IMG/VR virus record: IMGVR_UViG_3300013902_000009 | Span: 1 to 64,000 of that record | From: a virus | Lineage: Duplodnaviria > Caudoviricetes | Strand: one strand, 5' to 3' | Length of the DNA stretch: 64,000 nt | Shown: positions 26,394 through 60,568 of the stretch, piece by piece | How positions within the stretch are numbered: position 1 is the first letter of the stretch | Layout of the letters: each line of letters opens with the position of its first letter | The notes under the pieces: model-generated | The model's input: the letters and a program-made list of their open reading frames with translations, nothing else | Database searches by the model: none | What the model was told of the DNA's origin: nothing | Program-made: the position numbers and the translations under genes

Positions 26394-26849
26394 ATTGTCA
26401 AACAACTAACTAATTATAAAAAACAAGAACCGGCAAAGAATATAACGGTTTTGTTATATCGAAGATTAAAGATATCGAGTTAAAATTGCTAAAAACCAGA
26501 ACTCATAACTGACGGAACGGTAAGATTATTATAACCTACTATTGTAATCTACTCACATTAGCTATTTAACATCATATAACTTCATTACTGAACTTAAGGT
26601 AGGCCTTAAATGTTAACACCTTTGGTTAATCTATATTAATCGTGTCTAGAATTAATTAATATTGGTTAACAAATAGATGGATATCTTTAATCTATAAGGT
26701 AAAGGATGCAGAATATAAAAACTTACCATACACGCTATGATGTATTCAGATTATGGCTAAATTGTGCGTCTCCGGCTTGACTTAGTATTGCGGTACTTAA
26801 GTAACCAAGATTAACTTGGCTTTTTTTATTATGTATCCAGTTTTTCTTG

Positions 26850-26923
26850 TAGCCACTACAGGACTTGAACCTGTAACCTCGAAGGTATAAGCTTCTTGCG
26901 CTAACCAATTGCGCCAAGTGGCT
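26850..26923 (-). tRNA. tRNA-Ile(UAU)
   Basis: Acceptor AGCCACU/AGUGGCU, D-arm GCGC/GCGC, anticodon loop CU-UAU-AC, T-arm ACAGG-UUCAAGU-CCUGU. Confidence 0.9.
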
Positions 26924-28102: not shown

Positions 28103-28293
28103 TGTGTGTATGCGCGTGTACATGCGCGCGCGTGCGCGTATAACTCTAACTAATTCTTTCTCTTTTGGGATTTTCTTTTTTTTCTCTTCTTCTCTTTTTC
28201 TCTTCTTCTTTTCTTTATATTACTTTCTTTTCTTCTTCTCTTTTTCTCTTCTTCTCTTGTGTTTCTTTCCTTTTCTCTTTCTTTCTACTTTTT
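28103..28293. repeat. alternating purine-pyrimidine tract followed by a polypyrimidine tract
   Basis: 28103-28142 is strict Y/R alternation; about 28155-28293 is almost only T/C. Confidence 0.85.
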
Positions 28294-28348
28294 CGACAAT
28301 TTATTCGACCTTTTGACCAATAGTGAGACCCTCTCGTACAGGTAATAT

Positions 28349-30613: not shown

Positions 30614-30850
30614 GGAGAGGTAAGTCTCTCTCTCGAAGAGACGAGTCTCTCGCTTACTCTCTCCGGATGGTAAGGTGCGACCCGTCAGACTTGACGGGGG
30701 TACCCTCCCCGTGGGCGTCACCCCACGGGGAGGGTAAGGTAAGAATCCTCCGTTTATATAAATAAAATAAAAAAAATGCTAATCCCTCGCTTATAGAAAT
30801 AAAAAAACCAAAAAAAAGAATCCCTCCGCTTTTATATATAAAATAAAAAA
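30614..30850. other. putative replication origin or genome-end region: GC hairpins plus three direct repeats
   Basis: Perfect 15-bp inverted repeat at 30701-30736; hairpin at 30681-30698; AATCC(C)TC(C)G..TATA repeats at 30744, 30781 and 30819; lies at the strand switch beside a RepL-like gene. Confidence 0.55.
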
Positions 30851-31150
30851 GTTTTTTTTAGCCTGTTCTTTGTTTAGAAAAATTACAAAAAAAAATAAAA
30901 AAAAAATAAGTTTTGTTTAACCTATATTTTACTTTACTTCTTCTTGGTTTGCTTTGTGGTTGTTTTCAAAAGTTGAAGAGCCAATATTGCGTTGTAATAG
31001 ATATAAATAAGGAATAAGTCTTTAATTGATTGATTGTCAATTTATTTGCGGTTACGTTTATACTCTGTTATTATAATAGTTTTACTTGGTTGAGGTATTG
31101 GTTTTACTTGGCTGAAGTAATACTTATAATCGAAAATGATTATAAGTAGA

Positions 31151-35138: not shown

Positions 35139-35211
35139 GGCGGGTTAGCGCAGTGGCAGCGTGTGAGTCTCATAATCTCAAAGTCGTATGGTTCGAATCC
35201 TACACCCGCTT
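35139..35211 (+). tRNA. tRNA-Met(CAU), atypical
   Basis: Acceptor GGCGGGU/ACCCGCU, anticodon loop CU-CAU-AA, T-loop UUCGAAU; bulged T-stem. Confidence 0.75.
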
Positions 35212-35222
35212 CAAGTTTATAC

Positions 35223-35294
35223 GGGCTTATCGTATAAAGGTTATTACTGGTGACTGTTAATCACTCTATTGAGGTTCGAGTCCTTGTAAGCCCG
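35223..35294 (+). tRNA. tRNA-Asn(GUU)
   Basis: Acceptor GGGCUUA/UAAGCCC, loop CU-GUU-AA, T-loop UUCGAGU, discriminator G. Confidence 0.85.
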
Positions 35295-35313
35295 CTTATT
35301 AATGACACTGCTT

Positions 35314-37366: not shown

Positions 37367-37921
37367 ATGAATCTTTTACAATACAAAGATTATAAAGTTA
37401 CTATAAGCGATGAAGCTTGGTTAGTTCCATCTATACGTAAGTTATTTACTATGGATAAAACTAAAAACAAAGATGTTTTTCTTAACCAGATGACATATAT
37501 TTACTTTTATGCTGATGTAAGGAGTGATTACAACTATATAGATGACATTGATGAGAAGTCATCAACGATAATATCAAACGAAGGGCTTCCAAAGGATTTC
37601 AAGGTTACGCCAGAACTCGATAATGCTATTGAGGATTATATAAGGCTAACAACTACAACGTCTTCGGCTCTTTTAAGGGATTCTATGATTGCCGCTGAAC
37701 GTCTTCGTAAATTTCTTGTTAGTGTAGATTATAATGAAAGGGACGATAAGGGCAAGCCAGTATATGCTGTAAATACTGTAACTTCTGCTTTGAAGTCAAT
37801 ACCTGAGATAGCCAAGTCTATCAAAGAGACGGAGAGGATAGTCAATCAGGAAATGCTTGAGGCTGGTAGGGCAAGAGGTGGTAACGAGCATAAAAAACTA
37901 TTTGAAGATGGAGCGGTATAG
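37367..37921 (+). CDS. conserved crAss-like protein upstream of terminase
   Basis: Start MNLLQY; YIYFYADVRSDY...ARGG. Confidence 0.75.
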   Translation: MNLLQYKDYKVTISDEAWLVPSIRKLFTMDKTKNKDVFLNQMTYIYFYADVRSDYNYIDDIDEKSSTIISNEGLPKDFKVTPELDNAIEDYIRLTTTTSSALLRDSMIAAERLRKFLVSVDYNERDDKGKPVYAVNTVTSALKSIPEIAKSIKETERIVNQEMLEAGRARGGNEHKKLFEDGAV

Positions 37922-38192
37922 TGAGATTAAAAAGTTGGTTAGATGGGGAGAGTTGTTTCTTGGAGACAAACTTGGAGGAAATAGGCTAATATTGTCTGTT
38001 GAAGACAAGCCTAACAAAAAATTTCCTGCTTACCATAATTTGAAGGTTATTATATACGATGTTAAAAGTAGGAGTGAGAAAACGCTCATGTGTGGTTATG
38101 AAGGTACATATAGAACCGTAGGTGATGTAGATTCTATGCTTGACAGGCTTGCCGTTGATTTCATTAGTAAACTAATGTCTTATGGAGTATAA
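37908..38192 (+). CDS. hypothetical protein
   Basis: Likely start MERYSE. Confidence 0.6.
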   Translation: MERYSEIKKLVRWGELFLGDKLGGNRLILSVEDKPNKKFPAYHNLKVIIYDVKSRSEKTLMCGYEGTYRTVGDVDSMLDRLAVDFISKLMSYGV

Positions 38193-41100
38193 TTCAAAAC
38201 AGACACCGTTTGAGTCGCTCGGTCTTGATAAGGCTGCCGAGGAAGTTAGGCTTCAATATGATGATTTTGCTAATAATGTGCCTTTTATAAATTGGATGTT
38301 AGGTGCGCGTCCTAGAGCAAAAGACTTACCAAGAGACGAGTCTGGTAGAATTATAATCGATATAACAAAGCCTCATATACTTGAGGATATGGATTATTTC
38401 AGACCGACAGCCATACATTACCAAAAGACGGGTAAGCTGTGCGACTTCAAACCTAACGGCAACCCAAACAGCGATTACGGCGCTTGGGTTAGGGAGGAGA
38501 CGCGCAGGTGTCTTGAGGGTTACATTAGACCAAGCGACGGCGAGTGGATTACAGGCGACTACTACTTCTTTTTGAATTACTGCCCGATACAGCTATCAAA
38601 GAGAGGTAAAGGTAAGAAAGCCAACCGTGTGGTTGACTTCCCTTTTGTTTGGGACGGACATTATCTTATAACGCATTATCTATACAAGGCGAGAATGAGC
38701 GGGCATCACGCTTGGGAGTTAGCCCGCAGAGGTTCAGGCAAGGCGCATCCTTATGATGAGTTTGTATATACACCAGATGGACTAAAGCGTTGGGGTGATA
38801 TCAAAATAGGTGATACTCTTTACGGAGACGACGGGTTGACAACAAAAGTTGTTGATATTCCTTTCGACGGAGTATCCCCTGTTTATGAGGTGACGCTTGC
38901 CTCAGGAGAGAATGTGAGATGTTCAGAAGGGCATTTATGGAGGGTTAGAAGCCATACAAAAAAGAAAGAGTTAGTTATATCAACCAAGGAATTGATTGGC
39001 TTATACAAGAGAAAACGCAAGGTTTCTGACAGAAATCCCAAGGGTATAGAGTATGATTGCACAATTCCGTTAAGCAAAGGTGTTGACTATCCATACAAAG
39101 AGACAAAGGTAGATCCGTATGTTTTTGGTTTGCTTCTTGGTAACGGCAGTTTTAGGATTCCAAACTGTAAGGACAAGACATACTTTACAGCTCCAGACGA
39201 TGATTTTGAGGTGTATAAGGAATACATTCCATATAAGTGGATAAAATATTCAAACACAAAGTTTGGATACAACTTAAATGTGCCGGGCTTTGGAGATATA
39301 CTTAAAGGATACGGTTTGTTCTACAAGAAGTCCGAGAATAAGTTTATACCGGATGAGTATAAGTTCAATTCAAGAGAGGTCAGGATAAACATACTGAAAG
39401 GCATATTGGATTCCGACGGCACCGTTTATAATAAAAGAGGCTCAATAGATTTGGCGTTATCCTCAAAAAGACTCATAGAGGATGTCAGGTGGATTCTCGC
39501 TTCGCTTGGTATAAACTATTCAAAGATAAGGGTTAAGCACACGTTTTATAAAAATAAGGATGGCGTCAGGATTGACTGTTTGGATTCATACAGAATATCA
39601 ATATTTTCAGAAATAGAGTTGTTTAACCTTCCACGCAAACTTTCCTTATGGAACCAAAGGAGTCTCACAAATTATGGCAGGAGCAAATATACTGGAACAA
39701 AAATAGTTGATATACAATATGTAGGTGAACAGAAAGCCAAATGTGTAACGGTTGATAATGATTCGCATTGCTACTTAATCAACAACTTCATCGTGACGCA
39801 TAACAGCTTCTTGGGTGCTTCACTGCTTGCCAAGAGGTTTATATTGGGTGAGTCTTATGAGGTTAACCGCAAGGTGCAGTGCGTTGTGACTGCGTCTGAG
39901 AGAAAGTATCTTACTGGAGCAAACCAGATTCTTGATATGTTCCAGACTTATATAGATTTCTGCGCGACATATACAGAATGGCCTTATTTGCGTCTTATGG
40001 ATTCCAAACAGAATCTCCAGTGGATTATGGGTTACAAAGATGTAGATACGGGTGTATCAAAAGGTACTCTTAATTCGGTAATAGGCATATCTTCAAAAGA
40101 TGACGACTCCAAACTGAGAGGTTCGCGAGGTGTTTTGTATCTAATCGAGGAGTGCGGTACTTTTGCGAGGCTGCTTGATACATACAATACAATACGTCCT
40201 TCCGTTGAGGATGGAGATAGTGTTTTTGGAATGCTTTTCGGATACGGTACGTCTGGTTCGAGCGAGTCTGACTTTAGGAGTTCTCAGGAGATTATGTATA
40301 ACCCGGACGGATATAATGTGATGTCGCTTGAGAATGTATACGACAAGGTCGGGCAGGGCAGAAGCAGATTTTGCTATTTCTTTCCGGGTTATCTAAATAG
40401 ATCTGAATGCTATGATAATGATGGTAACTCTGATGTATCAAAGGCTCTGGTTGAAATACTTAAGGATAGATATGTAACCAAGTATAACTCTACAGACCCG
40501 AACACTATAACGAAGCGTATAGCGGAGATACCTATAACCCCTCAAGAGGCTGTGTTGAAAGTTATGGGTAATCTATTCCCAGTCAGTGATTTAAATGCGA
40601 GATTGAATCAGCTTGACGCCAATACATCCGAATATAACGATGTGTATACAGGAGAACTTATATTTGACAATAAAGGAGATGTTAAGTTTGCTCCTACTTC
40701 TGATATGCCTATACGTGTGTGGCCTACAAAAGACAACAAGGTTAATGGAGCCATAGAGTTCTACGCGATGCCGGAAAAGGATTCAAACGGCAAGGTTTAC
40801 AGGGAGAGGTATATATTAGGACATGACCCAGCCGATAATGATGTAGCTGATACGATGTCTTTGACTTCAACGTTTGTATTGGACTTGTGGACAGACAGGA
40901 TAGTTGCTGAATATACTGGCAGACAGGATTACGCTGACGACAACTTCGAGATAGTGAGGAAGCTGTGTATGTTCTATAACGGTAAGTGCTTATACGAGCA
41001 AAACAAGAAGGGTATATTCGCTTATTTTTCTAAGATGAACTGTCTGTATCTTCTTGCTGATACACCTGAGTATCTGAGGGATAAGCAGTTGATTAAGTCG

Positions 41101-41469
41101 ATAGGTTACGGCAATACAAGCAAGGGAGTTAACGCTACACAGCCTATCAATAATTTCGCCGACAATTTAATTAAGGAGTGGCTTATCAAGCCTGTCATGA
41201 TTAATATCGAGGAAGAAGGCGAGGTTAAAGAAGTGCAGGTTAAAAACCTTGTGTTTATCAAGAATAGGGCTTTGTTACAGGAGTTGATTTCGTATAATCC
41301 TTACGCAAACTTCGATAGAATACGTGCTTTAGGTATGCTCATGCTTTACCGCGAGCAGTATATGGTGCTTTGGGGAGGAGAGGTTCGCAAGGATAACAAT
41401 ATAGCTGATGATAAAGCATATCTTGGTAACGATGACTTTTTTAGTAAAAATTACAGGCATAAAGGTTAA
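38182..41469 (+). CDS. terL: terminase large subunit with intein
   Basis: ITGDYYFFLNY, Walker A RRGSGK|S, Walker B LIEE, YGTSG, nuclease GHDP...NFDR. Confidence 0.95.
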   Translation: MEYNSKQTPFESLGLDKAAEEVRLQYDDFANNVPFINWMLGARPRAKDLPRDESGRIIIDITKPHILEDMDYFRPTAIHYQKTGKLCDFKPNGNPNSDYGAWVREETRRCLEGYIRPSDGEWITGDYYFFLNYCPIQLSKRGKGKKANRVVDFPFVWDGHYLITHYLYKARMSGHHAWELARRGSGKAHPYDEFVYTPDGLKRWGDIKIGDTLYGDDGLTTKVVDIPFDGVSPVYEVTLASGENVRCSEGHLWRVRSHTKKKELVISTKELIGLYKRKRKVSDRNPKGIEYDCTIPLSKGVDYPYKETKVDPYVFGLLLGNGSFRIPNCKDKTYFTAPDDDFEVYKEYIPYKWIKYSNTKFGYNLNVPGFGDILKGYGLFYKKSENKFIPDEYKFNSREVRINILKGILDSDGTVYNKRGSIDLALSSKRLIEDVRWILASLGINYSKIRVKHTFYKNKDGVRIDCLDSYRISIFSEIELFNLPRKLSLWNQRSLTNYGRSKYTGTKIVDIQYVGEQKAKCVTVDNDSHCYLINNFIVTHNSFLGASLLAKRFILGESYEVNRKVQCVVTASERKYLTGANQILDMFQTYIDFCATYTEWPYLRLMDSKQNLQWIMGYKDVDTGVSKGTLNSVIGISSKDDDSKLRGSRGVLYLIEECGTFARLLDTYNTIRPSVEDGDSVFGMLFGYGTSGSSESDFRSSQEIMYNPDGYNVMSLENVYDKVGQGRSRFCYFFPGYLNRSECYDNDGNSDVSKALVEILKDRYVTKYNSTDPNTITKRIAEIPITPQEAVLKVMGNLFPVSDLNARLNQLDANTSEYNDVYTGELIFDNKGDVKFAPTSDMPIRVWPTKDNKVNGAIEFYAMPEKDSNGKVYRERYILGHDPADNDVADTMSLTSTFVLDLWTDRIVAEYTGRQDYADDNFEIVRKLCMFYNGKCLYEQNKKGIFAYFSKMNCLYLLADTPEYLRDKQLIKSIGYGNTSKGVNATQPINNFADNLIKEWLIKPVMINIEEEGEVKEVQVKNLVFIKNRALLQELISYNPYANFDRIRALGMLMLYREQYMVLWGGEVRKDNNIADDKAYLGNDDFFSKNYRHKG
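38743..39804 (+). mobile_element. class 3 intein (354 aa) with LAGLIDADG domain
   Basis: Starts AHPYD..VYTPDG; block B CSEGHLW; block F KCVTVD; ends VTHN|S. Confidence 0.9.
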
Positions 41470-41538: not shown

Positions 41539-43953
41539 ATGAGTTTTGACTTTGGTTTTCCGAGGCAGCAGCTTCCATTCTCTTCCAAGACTAAGGCTTG
41601 GAGGAAGCGTTGCGTCGATTGGGGGGCCGACAAATCCATAGGTGACGACAATCCTGTAAGGAAGTCTATGTATCATAAGATGATAAACTATGACTTGCTT
41701 AACGGAAAAACACATATAGAGGATATGATGAATGTCGTTAACCCAGATAGGATTGACGCCTCATACATACCGTCAAGTATACAACATTATCCTATAATGA
41801 ACTCAAAACTTAACGTCTTACGAGGTGAAGAGTCAAGAAGAGTTTTTGATTATAGGGTTATAGTAACAAACCCGACGGCCATAAGTGATATAGAGCGTGA
41901 GAAGAGAGACGCTTTAAGTCAATCATTACAGCAAGCTGTGATGGATTCATCAATATCTGAGGAAGATTTTAATGCTAGGATTCAGGAGATTTCAGACTAT
42001 TTTAATTATAACTATCAAGATACTAGGGAATTTAGGGCTAATTGCTTACTCAATCATTATTGGAAAGAATACAATATGCCATTAATGTTTAATAGAGGTT
42101 TCGTTGATGGTTATTGTGTTGGTGAAGAAATATACCAATGTGATATAGTCGGTGGTGAGCCAGTTATAAGTCAGATAAATCCTAGGATAATTAATCTCTA
42201 TATGAATTCGTATTCTTCAAGGGTTGAAGATGCCGATGTTGTTGTAATAGAGAATTGGTGGTCTCCAGCTAAGGTTATAGATACATTTCATGAGCAATTA
42301 ACTTCGAATGAAGTTAAGCGTATCGAGGAAGCATATATGACAGAAACTAATGGTGAGAATACTAGCGATAGTGAAGAGGCTGCAAGAGGTTTTATAAGGC
42401 TTACAGATGGCTATCAATCACCCGAAGAACGTTATGATAATAATGATAACGTATCAGCTTCTGTTCTTTTTGGTGATGAAACGGTACACTCTTTAACTCC
42501 TTATGATAATAATGGTAATATAAGAGTAGTACAGGTTTATTGGAAGTCAAGAAGGAAAGTAAAGAAGGTTAAATCTTACAATCAAATAACAGGAGAAGAG
42601 GAATATAATCTATATCCTGAGACATATATTTGCAATAAAGACAAAGGCGAGGAAGAGCAGGTATTGTGGATTAACCAAGCTTGGGAAGGTACAAAGATAG
42701 GTAAGGATATATATGTCAATATGAGACCTAGGCCTATACAGTATAATTCTATGAGTAATCCTTCAAGATGTCATTTTGGTATTGTAGGTTCAATCTATAA
42801 TATAACAGGTGACAAACCTTTCTCTTTGGTTGATATAATGAAGCCATATTCATATTATTATGACTTCATACATGATAGGCTAAATAAAACAATAGCAAAG
42901 AATTGGGGTAAAATCCTACAGATGGATATAGCTAAAGTGCCAGAGGGTTGGGATGTAGACAAGTGGATGTATTTCGCCAAGGTAAACTCAATAGCTGTTG
43001 TGGATTCATTCAAGGAAGGTAATAAAGGTGCTGCTACAGGTAAGCTTGCCGGTGGTTTAAATAACGCATCAACTGGAGTTATAGACCTCGAATTAGGTAA
43101 TTCTATACAGCAACATATAAATCTACTTGAGTACATCAAGTCTGAGATGAGTGAGGTTGCAGGAATATCAAAACAAAGAGAAGGTCAGATAAGTAATAGA
43201 GAAACCGTAGGAGGCGTTGAGAGGGCTACTCTTCAATCTAGTCACATCACAGAATGGTTATTTATAATACATGATGATGTCAAGAAACGCACTATGGAAT
43301 GCTTTCTAGAGACGGCTAAAATAGCTTTGAGAGGACGTTCTAAGAAGTTCCAATATATACTTCCTGATAATGCTATTAAAGTTATAGATATAGATGGCGA
43401 TGAGTTTGCAGAGTGCGATTACGGTATAGTAGTTGACAATTCTAGCGATATACAACAGCTAAAGTCGCAGATAGATACGCTTGCACAGGCGGCTTTACAG
43501 AACCAATTGCTTTCCTTCTCTACGCTTATGAGGATTTACTCTTCTTGCTCTCTTTCTGAAAAGGTTCGTCTTATAGAGCGTGACGAGAAACAGAGGCAGC
43601 AACAGGCCGAACAGGCGCAGCAACAACAGTTGCAAGCACAGCAACAGATTGCGCAAATGCAGCAGCGGGAAAAACAAATGGAGTTACAACTTGAAGATAC
43701 ATTAAATCAAAGGGATAACGAAACTAAAATTGTTGTTGCTACTATAGGCGCTCAATCAAAACAAAGCGAATCAAATGATGGTATAGTTGAACCTACAGAA
43801 AGTGAAAGGCAAAATCTTCAGGAGAAAATACGTCAGTTTGATGAGCGACTTAAATTAGATAGGGAGAGGCTAGAATTTGACAAAAATAAGTCAAAGGAAG
43901 AATTGAGGTTAAAAGAGAAGCAAATAAATAAACCAAATAAAACTGTTAAGTGA
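41539..43953 (+). CDS. portal protein
   Basis: FPRQQLP...K...W start; IQHYPIMNSKLNVLRGEE; GISKQREGQ; Q-rich coiled-coil end; follows terL. Confidence 0.9.
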   Translation: MSFDFGFPRQQLPFSSKTKAWRKRCVDWGADKSIGDDNPVRKSMYHKMINYDLLNGKTHIEDMMNVVNPDRIDASYIPSSIQHYPIMNSKLNVLRGEESRRVFDYRVIVTNPTAISDIEREKRDALSQSLQQAVMDSSISEEDFNARIQEISDYFNYNYQDTREFRANCLLNHYWKEYNMPLMFNRGFVDGYCVGEEIYQCDIVGGEPVISQINPRIINLYMNSYSSRVEDADVVVIENWWSPAKVIDTFHEQLTSNEVKRIEEAYMTETNGENTSDSEEAARGFIRLTDGYQSPEERYDNNDNVSASVLFGDETVHSLTPYDNNGNIRVVQVYWKSRRKVKKVKSYNQITGEEEYNLYPETYICNKDKGEEEQVLWINQAWEGTKIGKDIYVNMRPRPIQYNSMSNPSRCHFGIVGSIYNITGDKPFSLVDIMKPYSYYYDFIHDRLNKTIAKNWGKILQMDIAKVPEGWDVDKWMYFAKVNSIAVVDSFKEGNKGAATGKLAGGLNNASTGVIDLELGNSIQQHINLLEYIKSEMSEVAGISKQREGQISNRETVGGVERATLQSSHITEWLFIIHDDVKKRTMECFLETAKIALRGRSKKFQYILPDNAIKVIDIDGDEFAECDYGIVVDNSSDIQQLKSQIDTLAQAALQNQLLSFSTLMRIYSSCSLSEKVRLIERDEKQRQQQAEQAQQQQLQAQQQIAQMQQREKQMELQLEDTLNQRDNETKIVVATIGAQSKQSESNDGIVEPTESERQNLQEKIRQFDERLKLDRERLEFDKNKSKEELRLKEKQINKPNKTVK

Positions 43954-54163: not shown

Positions 54164-54557
54164 TAGATACATAATTAACAAGCTATTTGTTATAACACTT
54201 AAATACGCTCCGGCATTAATGTCGATATGTTGCATACTAAATACTACCGGAGCGTATTTTGGTTACGAAATGGGTTGGCTAAGTTTTATATCTGGAATAT
54301 CTTTGATACCTTGGCTCTTCCTTTTGTTAGCTTCGAGAGTTTTTAAATTTTGTGTATATCATAGGTTTATGCTATATTATATAGCGATTGACAATATTGT
54401 AAATATAATTGACTATCATATTGGTATTCCTGTTGATGATTACAATATACTTATGATTCATTATATTATACTCGGTGTTATTATGATGATTGCTGTTTAT
54501 AAACATACTAAAAAGATTCACAATGAACGTAAAAGACAAAATAAAAAGACTGCATGA
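54141..54557 (+). CDS. multi-pass membrane protein
   Basis: 3-4 hydrophobic segments; FKFCVYHR. Confidence 0.7.
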   Translation: MDESKILDRYIINKLFVITLKYAPALMSICCILNTTGAYFGYEMGWLSFISGISLIPWLFLLLASRVFKFCVYHRFMLYYIAIDNIVNIIDYHIGIPVDDYNILMIHYIILGVIMMIAVYKHTKKIHNERKRQNKKTA

Positions 54558-55974
54558 GGTTGTTGTGTCCCAAAAGACACCCACGGATACTAATGTCTTG
54601 TGGATTAAAAAGAATGTAAATTCAACATTTACATTTTATATTAACGATGGAATCGATTGGGTGACACCATCCTCAAGCTCTTCTTCTGGAACGGAATTAT
54701 CAGATAAGCAGTTGAATGCAATATTTAAAGCTGATAAGATTGTAATAGATGGCGATGGCAATATGTTTCTATCAAACGACGGAACGTATAAATCGCTTGA
54801 TTCATTCTTGGAAGGATATGCTAAGCTTACAGATATACCTCATTTTACATCGGAGCTAAATAATGATAAAGGCTTTATTACCGAGGTGGACCTGAAAGAA
54901 ATTTCATATACAAAGAGTGAAATTGATAACAAAATATTAACTAACGGTGGTTTTAGCGCATCACTTTATTATACAAAGGAAGATGTAGATAATATCGTTA
55001 ATAATAAAGCAAAGCAACTTGAAGCTTTTGATTGCTCCGCATTCTTTAGATTACAAGTTGGTGACGATTGTAGTAAAATATACGCTGCTTTAGAGACAGC
55101 TGTTAAGAATAAGAGAAGACTATATACTACTGTAACAAAGTATGATACAGATACAATATATAAGGAAGTATTCTCAAATTTTGAAAGCTACTATGATGTA
55201 GATGATGTATTGTCACCATCTGTAAGAATACATGCTCTACTTGATGATGGCCGTATTGAATATGTTACTATAGGTAGCCCAGAGGCTTCAGATAGGACAA
55301 ATAGTAAATATGCTATTATTGAAGAAATCGGTGTATCTGGCAGTCAATATCAACAATATGATTGTACTTACTTTTTTGTATCACCAGAAGGTACTATCGT
55401 TGATGAGCATTATGATGAGTTAGTAAATGCAATTAAAAAGGGGTATTTCCTTTATACTACATATAGTATCTATAAAGATGAAGCCGATAAATATATACAA
55501 GTAATTCCTAGCGTAGATGATTATAATGCTCCGTGGATTGATTTGATCGCTTTTAATGATTGTGTTGGAGACGAAGGCAACGTAATTGTTGAGTATGTAT
55601 ATATTAGGGAAAATAATACTGAGCAACAAGGTAAGACTATTATAGAGTCTAAAAAAGACAAGCTTCTAGTTGATGATACTATACTTAAGACAGTAAACGG
55701 TCAATCTCTAATTGGTTCTGGTGATATTAAGATAGAATCAGATGTGACATATGTTAATGTACCAGAACTACAAGAAGATTATATGGTACAATCTGGAGAG
55801 GAAAATAAAGAGATTATATATACTATTGAAGTAGGCGATACGGTGTATTCTATAACAGGAGATTCAACTCTGCGTTGGATTAATAGTGACGCTCCTGTTG
55901 CTAGCGCAAATTGCACTTATGTAATCTCTGTTATTGGAACGTTTGCGGTATGGGGTGAATTTCCAAAAGAGTAA
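54523..55974 (+). CDS. fibre-related structural protein
   Basis: N-terminus (S..TP.DTNVLWIK) resembles that of 49975; LKTVNGQSLIGSGDI motif. Confidence 0.7.
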   Translation: MNVKDKIKRLHEVVVSQKTPTDTNVLWIKKNVNSTFTFYINDGIDWVTPSSSSSSGTELSDKQLNAIFKADKIVIDGDGNMFLSNDGTYKSLDSFLEGYAKLTDIPHFTSELNNDKGFITEVDLKEISYTKSEIDNKILTNGGFSASLYYTKEDVDNIVNNKAKQLEAFDCSAFFRLQVGDDCSKIYAALETAVKNKRRLYTTVTKYDTDTIYKEVFSNFESYYDVDDVLSPSVRIHALLDDGRIEYVTIGSPEASDRTNSKYAIIEEIGVSGSQYQQYDCTYFFVSPEGTIVDEHYDELVNAIKKGYFLYTTYSIYKDEADKYIQVIPSVDDYNAPWIDLIAFNDCVGDEGNVIVEYVYIRENNTEQQGKTIIESKKDKLLVDDTILKTVNGQSLIGSGDIKIESDVTYVNVPELQEDYMVQSGEENKEIIYTIEVGDTVYSITGDSTLRWINSDAPVASANCTYVISVIGTFAVWGEFPKE

Positions 55975-55979
55975 TAATT

Positions 55980-56135
55980 ATGACTGCATTTAGAATACTA
56001 TTAATGATGCATAAGCATCAAAAGACAGATACAATCAAGCTTTCCCCAAAGAAGTTAGAGTTTGATTATAAAGAGGACTCAAAAGATCTAAGTGTAGAAT
56101 CAAATACTGAATGGTCTATAAGTGTAAACAAATAA
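55980..56135 (+). CDS. 51-aa protein carrying the N-terminal half of a BACON domain
   Basis: IKLSPKKLEFDYKEDSKDLSVESNTEWSISV. Confidence 0.7.
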   Translation: MTAFRILLMMHKHQKTDTIKLSPKKLEFDYKEDSKDLSVESNTEWSISVNK

Positions 56136-56136
56136 T

Positions 56137-56196
56137 TATTTTTGTTTATATTTTTGTTTATATTTTTGTTTATATTTTTGTTTATATTTTTGTTTA
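56137..56196 (+). repeat. 12-bp tandem repeat (TATTTTTGTTTA)x5
   Basis: Five exact copies ending at the A of the next ATG. Confidence 0.95.
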
Positions 56197-57884
56197 TGGC
56201 AACAAATTGGGTAAAATTAAGTAAGAGCTCAGGCTCTATGAATGATTCAGTAACAGTTACAGTTAATGAATATACTGGACGTTCTGACCGTGGTAGTACT
56301 ATTACTGCAAAAACAGCAGGTGGTGCCACGGATACTACCTCTGTTACACAGAAAGGCAAAGCAGAGTTTATTAGCGTTGGTACATTGACTTATAATGCAG
56401 CAGCTAAAGGTAATAATTCTGATGGTTCTGATACTATACAGATTACTGGTACTGCTAATACTGCTAATATCAAAGTAGTAGAGGAAACTCTTAACGTATC
56501 TAATCCACTCTTAAGTGGTAGAATCATTGACAATGCTACATATAAAATTCAAGTCAATGCTGTTAATGATACCTCTTGGGATGGTGAAACAGATACTGGT
56601 ATTGATGGCGACCCCGGTAAGGATGCACAATATACATTTACTATTGATGTAACTATTCCTGAGAATAAGTCAGAGAAGACTAAAACACTTCAATTTAACC
56701 TAAAAAATGGTAATTCAAATGTTTCTACTGAAGCTATTACTATTAATCAAGCTGCTGGTAAGAAGACTTACGGTGATATTACACTTACAGTAGGTTCTTA
56801 TCAGCAGATTCCTGCTTCTGGTGGTACTGTTGATGCTCCTTCTATTTCATACTCTCAGCCTTGGGGTTGGAATGGCGCAACCTCAGGTGGTGGCACTATT
56901 ACTACAGGTGGTACTGTAACTTTTGCATTTGAAAACGAGGCAGTTGCTAGTGGAGATTATGAATGGACACTTAATCCTACTACAGGTGAAGTAGAAGGAG
57001 TTGATCAAGATAATTATGTGACCGAAATACATTCAAGTAATGTTATTATTTCAATTAATAGTAATGGTAAGATTGCATCTAAAACAGTTGCTGTAACACA
57101 AGAAGCTAACAAGGTTACTTATTCTGTTACAAACGTTACTCTTGGAGATACAACAGATATTCCAGCTTCTGGTGGTACAGTATCTTCTACTACAGTTACA
57201 GCTAAGGGTTCCAAGACTTATACATCTGGTTCTAAAGAAGAGAACATAACTCTTACTAATGGTTCTGATGATTGTGCTATTACTTGGAGTTCTGCTATTA
57301 CGGCTGCTTCACTTGGCACTACAGTCACTAATAGAACCAAAAAGGGCACTCTTACAGCTACAGTTGCTTGGAAGACAGCTGCTACCAATACTGGTTCCGT
57401 AGATGTATATCAGGCTGCTAACACGGCTACTTACAGTGACATCACATTTGATTCTGCCGTTACTACAACAGTATCACTTAAGGCTGATGGAACTCAAAGT
57501 CGCAATATGACTGATAACTCTAATGTTGGTGCTAAGCAGACTGTTACTTACACTTCTGGTGCTACTAGAACTGAATCTAGCTCTACTTCAAAGGTTGTAT
57601 TTAGCTTTACACCTACAGTTAAGACTGCTGCTACAGGATTCGCTTTATCTTCTGATGGAATTGTTTCTGTTGGTGCAAACCCGACAACTACATCAAGAGG
57701 CGGTTTTGTAGTTACGGTTGCTGTTGAAGGCGAGGGTGGCAAGACTGCTACTAGAGAATTTACATTTAATCAGCAAGGTAGTAGCTCTTATATTACAATT
57801 ACTCCTGATAGCCTCACATTTGCCGCTGCTGGTGAAGAGAAGACTATTACAATTGATTCTAATGACAGTTGGACTCTTGAATAA
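56196..57884 (+). CDS. BACON-like repeat fibre protein 1
   Basis: Starts with a C-half BACON (WVKLSKSSGS...R...VTQ), has IPASGG repeats, ends with an N-half BACON. Confidence 0.8.
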   Translation: MATNWVKLSKSSGSMNDSVTVTVNEYTGRSDRGSTITAKTAGGATDTTSVTQKGKAEFISVGTLTYNAAAKGNNSDGSDTIQITGTANTANIKVVEETLNVSNPLLSGRIIDNATYKIQVNAVNDTSWDGETDTGIDGDPGKDAQYTFTIDVTIPENKSEKTKTLQFNLKNGNSNVSTEAITINQAAGKKTYGDITLTVGSYQQIPASGGTVDAPSISYSQPWGWNGATSGGGTITTGGTVTFAFENEAVASGDYEWTLNPTTGEVEGVDQDNYVTEIHSSNVIISINSNGKIASKTVAVTQEANKVTYSVTNVTLGDTTDIPASGGTVSSTTVTAKGSKTYTSGSKEENITLTNGSDDCAITWSSAITAASLGTTVTNRTKKGTLTATVAWKTAATNTGSVDVYQAANTATYSDITFDSAVTTTVSLKADGTQSRNMTDNSNVGAKQTVTYTSGATRTESSSTSKVVFSFTPTVKTAATGFALSSDGIVSVGANPTTTSRGGFVVTVAVEGEGGKTATREFTFNQQGSSSYITITPDSLTFAAAGEEKTITIDSNDSWTLE

Positions 57885-57902
57885 GTCTAATATATATCCA
57901 AT

Positions 57903-57931
57903 GAATGTAGGGGATAAAATCCCCTACATTC
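57903..57931 (+). terminator. 13-bp hairpin (weak terminator or mRNA stabiliser)
   Basis: GAATGTAGGGGAT-AAA-ATCCCCTACATTC with an imperfect U-tract. Confidence 0.65.
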
Positions 57932-57961
57932 TATTATTATTAATAGTTAAACAAATTTATT

Positions 57962-60568
57962 ATGGCTAAACCTGCGTGGATAGAAATAATTAATGGCGCA
58001 TCTGGTAGTGGGTCTACAACTAGGACGTTAAAAGCAAAAGCTCATACTGGTAGGTTAAGTAGGTCAGGTTCTATTAAAGGCACTGTATCAAGTGGAGAAT
58101 CAGACACTGTTTCTCTTTCGCAAATTGGAGCAAACGAATTTATTAGTATTAATTTGCAATCGTATTCTGTTACAGCCTTGGGAGGAGTTGTAACAATTAC
58201 TGGTACAAGCAATTCTCCTTCTTTAAAGATAACCAATCTAAGTAATGCGAGCATTATTTCTAGCAGGTCTTTAAAGATAAATGGAACGACTTATACTTGG
58301 GATGGAGATTCATCTCATTTAATAGCAAACGACCCCGGTGCTGCTAATACGTATTCTTTTGAAATATCATTAAGTATAACTGAGAATCAAACCGAAAGTT
58401 CTAGGTCTACTTCTTTTTATTTGAGCGATTCTGGCTCAACAGTTGTTAAAACTAGTACTATATCTATAACTCAAGCTGCTGGTGTTAAAACCTATGGAAC
58501 AGAAGATTTTACTCTAAATTATAATATTTGGGATATTCCAGCATCTGGTGGAACAGCAAGTTGTATATATTCATTCACAATCCCTTGGGGTTGGAATGGC
58601 AAAACGTCTGGAGGAGGTACACTAACACAAAATGATGAGCATACTATAGAGTTTAATTATAGAGATGACGGTCCAGATTATCCTTTTGATTGGAGTTTAG
58701 ATAGCAATACAGGAGATATTACAGTTGCTAGTCTAGGAACAAATGAGACTACTAGCAGTAGTGGTAATATATATATTCAAGCTACTGTTACTATACAGGG
58801 TAAGACAATTTATGCAGAAGATTATGTTGAACAGCAAGCTAATGAAGTTTCCTATAGGTTAGGTGATATAGAATTATCAGTTGATGATATTCCCGCATCC
58901 GGAGGAACAGCTAGCGTTAATTTTATATCAGGAATTGGTTATACTAATTATTCTTCCGGAGAATCATCAACAACCTCTCTGTTTAGTAGTAGTGATGTTT
59001 CTATTGACCATAATGATGTATCTGCAGATAATCTTGGTACCACAGTAAAGAGTAGAACTAAAGTAGGAACTCTTAATGTTATAGTTACTTGGAATGGTGT
59101 TACAGAATTCCCAAGTCTTGATGTATATCAAGAAGCGAATAAGATAGAAAATACCACTTATGAGGGAGGAGAAATTACTTATGAAGATGTTTCTATTGGA
59201 GAAATTACAGATGGATATATACCAGCATCGGGAGGAACGGCTACCGCTACAGCGGGAGATGGAAGTCAAAGTTGGTCACGTACAAGTGAAACTAAAATTA
59301 ATCATTATACATCTGGAGAACGTGAAGAACTTTTACACGATTTTGCTAGATCGGGTACTGATAAAATATCACCTTCTGTAGATTCTATTAAAGCTGTAGC
59401 TGCTTCAAGAGGAACTACTGTTGGTTCAACAATAACTTTAAAAACTCAAACTGTTACTTGGATTGGAGAAGGAGGTTTATCTAAGTCTGGTGTCATAGTT
59501 ATATATCAAGAGGAAAACAAGGTAGAAGAAACTTCAACAGAAGGAGGCAATGTTAGTTATTCTGACTTAGTAGCTGGAGATATTACAAATGGTATAATTC
59601 CTGCATCTGGTGGAAGTGCAACTGCAACGGCTGGGAAAGGAAGTGTAGTGAAAGCGATAGAATCTACATATAATGTAAATACATATACATCTGGTTCCAT
59701 AGACAGAGTTTTAGCTAACGCAGGTTCTTCTGAAACTATCGAAGTAGAGCCTTCTGTAAGCTTAATTTCCGCTACTGCTTCTTCTAAGGGTACTACCATA
59801 TCAGAGCAAACAGTTGTAAAATCACAAGATGTTACTTGGGAAACAGGTAATTTGTCTGTTTCTGATAATATGTATATTTATCAAGAAGCAAATACAAAAT
59901 CTATTTCTGAACTAAAAACCAATATAGAAACGTTAAATGTTCCAGCGGAAGGTTGTACATATTCATTGCAAGAAATAATAAATCCATTACAATATTATGT
60001 TTATACATCTGGAGAAAAGAAAGAAATAACTCCGATGTGGTTCGGATACGAGCAAGGAGCAAATAGTAATACTTATAATTTCATTACTATAGAATATAAC
60101 AATATTAGTTTTGGCGAAAATGATGGAGATGCTAGAAGTGGTGTAGTTACTATTACAGTTAACACTATAGATGAAGATGGTATTGTAGATTATTCTAGTA
60201 TTATAGATGTTGATATATCATTTATTCAGGAAAAAAAGCTTAAAAAACCATCAATGGTTATAGACCACAATGAGTTCTATGCAAATGGAAATTTAACATT
60301 TGATAATAATACAACTATTGCGATACTTAAAGTTACAGATAATGATAATGCTGGATGGTCAATACATCCATTTTCACAAGGAGCATGGTTATTAATAGAT
60401 TCTTCGTCACTTGTTATTTCTGGTACAGGCGCAAGTGTTATATCTGTTACTGTAAAAGTAAATGAAACTCTTGAAGATAGAAATGGTAATATATCCCTTT
60501 ATAGCGGAGAAGATCAAGTCGATAGCGTATCCGTTACGCAATTAGCAATTTCTAAAATTAATCTATGA
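57962..60568 (+). CDS. BACON-like repeat fibre protein 2
   Basis: Starts with a C-half BACON, has four IPASGG repeats, ends with a complete BACON-like domain. Confidence 0.8.
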   Translation: MAKPAWIEIINGASGSGSTTRTLKAKAHTGRLSRSGSIKGTVSSGESDTVSLSQIGANEFISINLQSYSVTALGGVVTITGTSNSPSLKITNLSNASIISSRSLKINGTTYTWDGDSSHLIANDPGAANTYSFEISLSITENQTESSRSTSFYLSDSGSTVVKTSTISITQAAGVKTYGTEDFTLNYNIWDIPASGGTASCIYSFTIPWGWNGKTSGGGTLTQNDEHTIEFNYRDDGPDYPFDWSLDSNTGDITVASLGTNETTSSSGNIYIQATVTIQGKTIYAEDYVEQQANEVSYRLGDIELSVDDIPASGGTASVNFISGIGYTNYSSGESSTTSLFSSSDVSIDHNDVSADNLGTTVKSRTKVGTLNVIVTWNGVTEFPSLDVYQEANKIENTTYEGGEITYEDVSIGEITDGYIPASGGTATATAGDGSQSWSRTSETKINHYTSGEREELLHDFARSGTDKISPSVDSIKAVAASRGTTVGSTITLKTQTVTWIGEGGLSKSGVIVIYQEENKVEETSTEGGNVSYSDLVAGDITNGIIPASGGSATATAGKGSVVKAIESTYNVNTYTSGSIDRVLANAGSSETIEVEPSVSLISATASSKGTTISEQTVVKSQDVTWETGNLSVSDNMYIYQEANTKSISELKTNIETLNVPAEGCTYSLQEIINPLQYYVYTSGEKKEITPMWFGYEQGANSNTYNFITIEYNNISFGENDGDARSGVVTITVNTIDEDGIVDYSSIIDVDISFIQEKKLKKPSMVIDHNEFYANGNLTFDNNTTIAILKVTDNDNAGWSIHPFSQGAWLLIDSSSLVISGTGASVISVTVKVNETLEDRNGNISLYSGEDQVDSVSVTQLAISKINL

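Follow-up and report, generated by a model that had tools for sequence, protein, structure and literature searches.

The question raised by this locus is whether a protein domain that has been cut in two, each half being encoded at the facing end of a neighbouring gene, can be restored when the separately translated products meet. The stretch in question, hereafter the window, comprises the first 64 kb (64,000 nucleotides) of the virus record IMGVR_UViG_3300013902_000009, a Crassvirales genome of 99,817 bp with a CheckV completeness of 98%. Three consecutive genes of its plus strand, namely a small open reading frame (ORF) encoding 51 aa, gene 2 and gene 3 (Table 1), carry sequences of the BACON (PF13004) and viral BACON_2 (PF19190) family, to which Bacteroidota glycan-binding proteins and crAss-like phage fibres also belong. 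At both gene junctions this domain is divided into a front half (a-half), which ends one protein, and a back half (b-half), which begins the next. The best explanation for this arrangement, considered fairly probable on the combined strength of the split pattern in relatives and of AlphaFold2 (AF2) models, is that the halves complement each other's fold in trans.

At each junction, BACON positions ~1-40 end one protein and positions ~41-93 begin the next, and no complete sandwich of ~90 residues is found in one polypeptide; the C-terminal copy of gene 3 alone is whole. The small ORF ends in ..SNTEWSISVNK followed by TAA, the stop being placed 6 residues past the conserved Trp, and its last 33 residues matched positions 3-38 of PF19190 weakly (E 0.055). 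Gene 2 begins with MATNWVKLSKSSGS and ends in ..SNDSWTLE followed by TAA; its b-half occupies residues 1-56 (56196-56363) and its a-half residues 527-562 (57774-57881), each with an invariant Trp (W5 and W559, respectively), and its N-terminus matched positions 42-93 of the 94 positions of PF19190 with 33.4 bits, the cut-off being 25. Gene 3 starts with MAKPAWIEII, carries a b-half at residues 1-60 (57962-58141) and ends with the whole BACON domain at ~60284-60565, which was recognized by PF13004 at residues 808-860 (E 2.3e-12; 47.1 bits for the whole protein). These family matches confirmed, with all coordinates, the layout of half and whole domains that an earlier reading of the window from its letters, here called the sequence-only reading, had assigned to the three genes.

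The termini of gene 2 homologues served to build profile hidden Markov models (HMMs) of the a-half (36 positions) and the b-half (61 positions). When the 99.8-kb genome was scanned in six frames, the a-half model matched only the small ORF (E 5e-6) and the C-terminus of gene 2, and the b-half model matched the N-termini of genes 2 and 3 (E 3e-16 for gene 3) and otherwise, weakly, the whole domain of gene 3, giving a genome total of exactly two a-ends and two b-starts. Along the contiguous tandem BACON domains of bacterial lipoproteins, the two models alternated at a distance of 2-6 residues, and the loop lengths of the split pairs sum to the loop of the whole domain. The halves of the window also fell on residues 37-65 and 66-120 of a GH16 protein (PDB 8va4_A), an alignment that was collinear and statistically weak. 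Judged by these profile comparisons, both segments are real BACON halves.

The same three-gene layout, cut at the same loop, was found in 24 IMG/VR loci of ~72% identity, in which frames 0, +1 and +2 all occurred between the small ORF and gene 2 as well as between gene 3 and gene 2. Among relatives, the junction spacers ranged from 2 to ~100 nt and were unrelated in sequence, and the downstream genes all kept an ATG in a conserved MAKP.W or MESW context. The sequence-only reading had held that the breaks separate genuine genes and are not frameshifts, a claim upheld by these variable frames and spacers and by the retained start codons. It had also proposed to check whether the split point is conserved, as it proved to be in the 24 loci and beyond. 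Among the 120 best-scoring gene 2 homologues of similar length that were listed, 105, down to 44% identity and including contigs of ~100 kb, combined a b-start (MAKP.W...) with an a-end and stopped 2-3 residues past the a-half Trp (..SNDSWTL[ES]); among the other 15 are a chimeric and a partial protein, one each, and gene calls that begin at an internal Met. The split point is thus deeply conserved, which argues that homologues are not routinely fused.

Selection on the segments pointed in the same direction. The 51-aa ORF was open in 24 of 24 IMG/VR relatives, had orthologues down to 37% identity, among them those of L033, L035, L041 and L042, and showed a pooled ratio of non-synonymous to synonymous polymorphism (pN/pS) of 0.30, in leader and a-half alike; it is under purifying selection. 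For gene 2, pooled pN/pS was 0.13 in the b-half, 0.13 in the body and 0.33 in the a-half, and its half-domains were among the best-conserved 20-residue blocks of the protein (column conservation 0.70-0.84).

Four more distant loci (L033, L035, L037 and L039) were also compared. Gene 2 of L033, L037 and L039 is immediately preceded by a gene with an a-half at its end and followed by a gene that opens with MESW... and a b-half; in every locus examined, genes with an a-end stand directly ahead of genes with a b-start. A census of 120 longer homologues (985-2810 aa) returned b-start together with a-end in 30, a-end only in 19 and b-start only in 16, and an internal contiguous a+b in only 2. As read from these sequences, the architectures follow a grammar of anchors (front half at the end), links (both halves) and tips (back half at the start), a pattern that would be difficult to account for if a-ends and b-starts did not meet. 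In the complete genome of a relative, 98.4 kb long (G001, the record of L016), two small proteins of 205 and 221 aa, encoded on the minus strand at 37585-38202 and 38254-38919 (L044), have a b-half-like start and an a-half-like end and are candidate minimal links; the genome of the window has no counterpart of either.

The anchors of the relatives also bear on where such a chain might be attached. The protein preceding gene 2 was found to be a relative of the head-fibre dimer protein gp29 of crAss001 (PDB 7QOF/8CKB; PF25641) in L033 (PF25641, 122 bits) and in L037 (PDB 7qof_j, E 1.5e-4), and it is probably gp29-like in L039, where it shares only an N-terminal motif with its counterparts in the other two loci. 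PMC10172136 describes gp29 as a protein of 118-122 aa whose residues 1-58 bind the winged hexon pocket of the crAss001 capsid and whose C-terminal beta-sandwich has an immunoglobulin-like (Ig-like) fold, and no divided domain is mentioned. By homology, the gp29-like proteins of the relatives point to a capsid-anchored fibre, and the assembly may be a head fibre or adhesin, not a tail fibre with shaft and tip. The shaft-and-tip fibre that had been envisaged for the window was revised in this sense, the anchors of the relatives being homologues of a capsid head fibre.

The compatibility of the halves was addressed by AF2 modelling. For gene 2 alone, predicted from a 43-sequence alignment, the all-beta body was modelled with a predicted local distance difference test score (pLDDT) of 85-95, the b-half with 62-65 and the a-half with 49-58, both halves having few strands; in Foldseek, this model matched the Ig arrays of titin, cadherin and RTX adhesins. 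In the relative L002 (73% identical), genes 2 and 3 share one reading frame, interrupted solely by TAA stops, and a fusion consisting of the last 150 residues of gene 2, a 24-residue spacer and the first 190 residues of gene 3, with TAA read as Gly, was modelled from an alignment that included fragments of the window and of the four distant loci. In this fusion, the a-half was predicted with pLDDT 83-93 and four strands (121-149), and the b-half with 76-87 and four strands (181-228), eight strands in all, and the spacer was disordered (pLDDT <40). The fusion model aligned end to end with straight three-domain Ig arrays, the result expected if a and b together form the middle domain. It also matched the engineered, donor-strand-complemented CfaB/CfaE structures of CFA/I pilins (3f85, Z 9.4; 2hb0, Z 9.1, model residues 118-350), matches that are generic to Ig arrays. 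A second structural comparison of the fusion model returned generic Ig-array matches only and did not specifically confirm the BACON fold, and phmmer searches of the PDB with the junction fusion gave chance matches only. According to these models, the halves are compatible in silico.

Several observations weigh against joining in trans. The AF2 test used a single-chain fusion, which is biased toward local pairing, and concerned the L002 junction, not the window's own; the contact between a and b was inferred from confidence and secondary structure. No match to PF25641 was found in the 99.8-kb genome at E <= 1, which, in contrast to L033 and L037, leaves the putative chain of this phage without a gp29-type anchor to the virion. 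A fused form joining protein X, the product of the gene upstream of the small ORF, to the leader and a-half was not found either: a search for longer proteins with the small-ORF profile returned only four bacterial tandem-BACON lipoproteins, and neither half occurred in the 150 top-ranking representatives for the C-terminal domain of X. Moreover, half counts are unbalanced in L033:4184-8289 (three a-ends, two b-starts) and in L035:5844-7596 (two a-ends, one b-start), where alternative anchors on one link, partners elsewhere in the genome or capping by the mini-ORF are possible. These unequal counts would fit a reading in which the halves do not pair at all, the b-half being a small domain sufficient in itself and the a-half a conserved tail that serves, for instance, in oligomerisation or as a signal for assembly or for a chaperone. 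The b-half might indeed fold alone, since the classical Pfam BACON model (PF13004, 61 positions) covers only that half. It is nonetheless unlikely that the halves remain unpaired, given that the 94-position viral model needs both of them, that their HMMs tile contiguous domains with a short gap, that the loops of split pairs add up to that of a whole domain, that lone halves were modelled with low confidence, and that a-end and b-start genes are adjacent wherever they were examined.

Another possibility is that the a-half of gene 2 folds back onto its own b-half to give a circularly permuted BACON domain, the 51-aa protein then pairing with gene 3. Gene 2 has one of each half and the 2:2 count of the genome is compatible with such closure in cis, which is rated improbable: the AF2 monomer left both termini unclosed (pLDDT 49-65, against 76-93 in the fusion), the gene 2 body is a long string of Ig-like domains resembling titin or cadherin, gene 2 would be left unattached, and some pairing in trans is needed by anchors that bear an a-end alone and tips that bear a b-start alone. 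The low confidence of the lone termini next to the confident a-to-b fusion thus argues against the circularly permuted monomer that the sequence-only reading had named as a refutation. Recoding or splicing, whether by read-through, frameshift, bypass or a small intron, could yield one polyprotein with intact BACON domains, and in the window the small ORF does share its frame with gene 2, a single stop (TAA) and an insert of 63 nt lying between them, and the second gap holds a hairpin. However, neither junction keeps the same frame relation from one close relative to another, spacers are unrelated in length and sequence, every downstream gene keeps its ATG context, no suppressor tRNA was found among the three tRNA genes detected, and the sequence holds no matching take-off and landing codons; the conserved frame relation and junction signal of programmed recoding were not observed, and this explanation is very improbable. 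Ribosomal bypass was considered separately at either junction and rejected, as there was no take-off/landing codon pair and the spacers were variable. Finally, the tiny size of the 51-aa ORF and the promoter-like repeat lying exactly at the cut might suggest decaying relics of a gene fission or an insertion in an ancestral fibre gene, with the ORF as a pseudogene fragment. This is scarcely credible for an ORF that is open in every relative, constrained in leader and a-half and recognizable to 37% identity, next to a gene whose half-domains are its best-conserved parts. On this comparative evidence, the cut is neither an artefact nor a recoding site nor a relic.

Under complementation in trans, the binding of the halves, the order of pairing, the stoichiometry and a function in adhesion, as we infer them, would be as follows. 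Each of the three genes would specify a subunit, translated on its own, of a single virion appendage, namely a Crassvirales fibre or adhesin. As donor, the C-terminal 30-35 residues of one protein would supply about four (3-4) beta-strands and the first conserved Trp; as acceptor, the next protein would supply four strands and the second conserved Trp within its N-terminal 55-60 residues. Donor and acceptor would together form one complete BACON Ig-like sandwich, an interlocked joint between subunits. Gene order suggests gene 2 as the likely partner of both the 51-aa protein and gene 3, and gene 3 would add a distal part that varies, together with a whole BACON domain. This scheme resembles chaperone-usher pili (Fim, Pap, CFA/I), in which an incomplete Ig-like fold is completed by strands of the next subunit to give head-to-tail chains with adhesin tips. 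In pili, however, only the G strand is lacking and one N-terminal strand fills the groove with the help of a periplasmic chaperone and an usher, whereas here, in the AF2 fusion, about four C-terminal strands, almost half of the sandwich and part of its core, would be given to an N-terminal half-domain of four strands, in the cytoplasm of the infected cell. The analogy with pilus donor-strand assembly therefore stood as far as the compatibility of the halves is concerned and failed as regards the donor, a half-domain and not a single strand. There is no sequence relationship between the split-BACON proteins and pilus subunits, and no chaperone or usher turned up among the neighbouring genes, although no search aimed at either was made.

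The relative amounts of the subunits may be set at the two junctions. Every unit TATTTTTGTTTA of the tandem repeat between the small ORF and gene 2 holds TAnnTTTG, the Bacteroides -7 promoter motif as quoted in Bacteroides papers, and the motif reaches 6.7 per kb in the 62 nt preceding plus-strand genes of this genome, against 0.93 per kb, an enrichment of ~7-fold. The repeat is probably gene 2's own promoter array. It is kept in close relatives (81-82% identity) as 4 copies of a 12-bp or 13-bp unit: compared with the window (12-bp x 5), L041:2950-3000 has 12-bp x 4 and L042:3026-3078 has 13-bp x 4, differences in copy number and unit length by which the frame between the small ORF and gene 2 varies and which could tune gene 2 expression. 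The public gene call P0003 begins within the array. At the other end of gene 2, the 77-nt spacer before gene 3 contains a stem-loop that is a terminator or attenuator candidate; L001, L033 (there followed by a U-run) and L037 likewise have a strong hairpin in this place, and the four are unrelated in sequence. Their recurrence in four lineages fits the stoichiometry control, favouring shaft over tip, that had been proposed for the hairpin. With its own promoter-like array and a downstream hairpin, gene 2 looks like its own highly expressed unit and is probably produced in excess of its neighbours; this fits more link than tip copies and is no proof of polymerisation, and the idea of the sequence-only reading that the middle protein could self-polymerise gained no support.

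Gene 3 is paralogous to gene 2 over the first ~400 residues of its body, with the common motif PWGWNG.TSGGG, and among its relatives the C-terminal parts are variable and the lengths range from 283 to 935 aa. Since the two genes are paralogues, junctions 1 and 2 are not independent evidence; the second may have been copied from the first by one unequal crossover, in which case two inventions are not needed.

As for the upstream side of the locus, protein X followed immediately by the small a-only ORF was found in the window, L001-L024, L033, L035, L041 and L042, the a-only ORF being of ~50 aa in L033 and L035. The gap between the two was 0-5 nt in four lineages. The leader of the 51-aa ORF carries a conserved FR.[LI][LM] motif. 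Protein X had no match in Pfam, PHROG or PDB; PDB profile and Atlas searches gave no identity, and its Atlas matches are fibre-like leads only. Its conserved C-terminal domain of ~70 residues (55549-55971), which ends in ..AVWG.F and has no Pfam or PDB match, forms the extreme C-terminus in 163 representative clusters, whose host proteins range from 92 to 1600 aa. Passage of ribosomes from X to the small ORF by a -1 frameshift was rejected: no slippery heptamer occurs in the 13-nt overlap, and the two reading frames stand in relation 0 in the L001 group but +2 elsewhere. The sequence-only reading had cast the 51-aa protein as the anchor, a role for which nothing was found, neither a form fused with X nor a structural lead.

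BACON repeats are known near crAss tail-fibre genes, and gut-phage BACON proteins mediate adherence to epithelial layers (PMC6949934 and PMC13370021, respectively). The BACON domains described are contiguous, unlike the split ones reported here, and the passages that look-ups by term returned from these two papers do not tell of one that is shared out over two genes. Likewise, look-ups by term in papers on crAssphage BACON, crAss001 and gut-phage adhesins and discovery, together with full-text searches, brought up no account of phage genes that divide a BACON or Ig domain between them. Among viral precedents, two come closest: in the nozzle of Pseudomonas phage A1002, which is split (PMC13730344), and in the strand exchange of sheath protomers (PMC13266070), strands from a separately encoded structural partner complete or augment a fold and lock the assembly. 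These differ in fold (beta-propeller/platform and sheath handshake) and have fixed partners, with no reusable Ig connector grammar.

No viruses are more abundant in the human gut than the Crassvirales, whose fibres and BACON adhesins decide what is adhered to, host bacteria or mucosal surfaces. Few natural split-domain connectors are known, such as pilus strand exchange and split inteins. Split BACON halves could represent a general plug-and-socket of gut Crassvirales and other Bacteroidota phages, by which adhesin fibres of head or tail would be built post-translationally from exchangeable modules, with links such as gene 2 perhaps in multiple copies; this generalization is tentative and held with slightly more doubt than belief. 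If joining in trans is true, receptor-binding tips could be swapped by whole-gene exchange with attachment intact, fibre genes could be matched by an annotation rule in which an a-end pairs with a b-start, and a new natural, genetically encoded split-domain connector would be at hand for protein assembly or for the engineering of phages in laboratory strains.

Table 1. Positions of the split-BACON genes and associated features in the window.
Feature	Position	Strand	Description
Terminase	38182-41469	+	Late block, upstream of split-BACON genes
Portal	41539-43953	+	Late block, upstream of split-BACON genes
Protein X, fibre-like, 494 aa	54490-55974	+	Start TTG; ATG at 54523; end ..AVWGEFPKE
Small ORF, 51 aa	55980-56135	+	17-20 residue leader and BACON front half (a-half, 56034-56132)
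Tandem repeat TATTTTTGTTTA x 5.1, 12-bp unit	56137-56197	+	Between small ORF and gene 2; Tandem Repeats Finder score 122, 100% matches; probable promoter array
Gene 2, 562-aa 'link' protein	56196-57884	+	ATG 56196; b-half, all-beta Ig-like body, a-half
Stem-loop, 13 bp	57903-57931	+	Gene 2/gene 3 spacer; free energy (dG) -21.5 kcal/mol, z -4.74; terminator-like
Gene 3, 868-aa 'tip' protein	57962-60568	+	b-half, gene 2-like body, whole C-terminal BACON

The genome belongs to Crassvirales by its crAss-type major capsid gene (genome positions 65302-66798; PF23898 Crass_capsid, E 1.9e-165). The split-BACON genes lie ~5 kb upstream of it in a plus-strand late block, in which two large tail proteins, besides the terminase and the portal, are also encoded upstream of them; their neighbours are phage structural genes. 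PHROGs held no family for the three split-BACON proteins, and searches of the GenBank phage collection at the nucleotide level and by tblastn, with the region, gene 2 and the L037 anchor as queries, gave no match.

Some minor features of the window were also recorded. The large terminase subunit is 1095 aa long and covers only positions 78-751 of the 758-position PHROG profile, a discrepancy that suggests an insertion of ~340 residues, such as an extra domain, an intein or similar. Three tRNA genes, Ile (TAT), Met (CAT) and Asn (GTT), are located at 26849-26923 and 35139-35295. Pyrimidine-rich repeats of 38-46 bp and A-rich repeats of 37 bp with a 20-nt A run occur at 28171-28294 and 30741-30909, at the strand-switch region, where the GC skew changes sign (~30 kb), and this may be an origin or a divergent promoter region.

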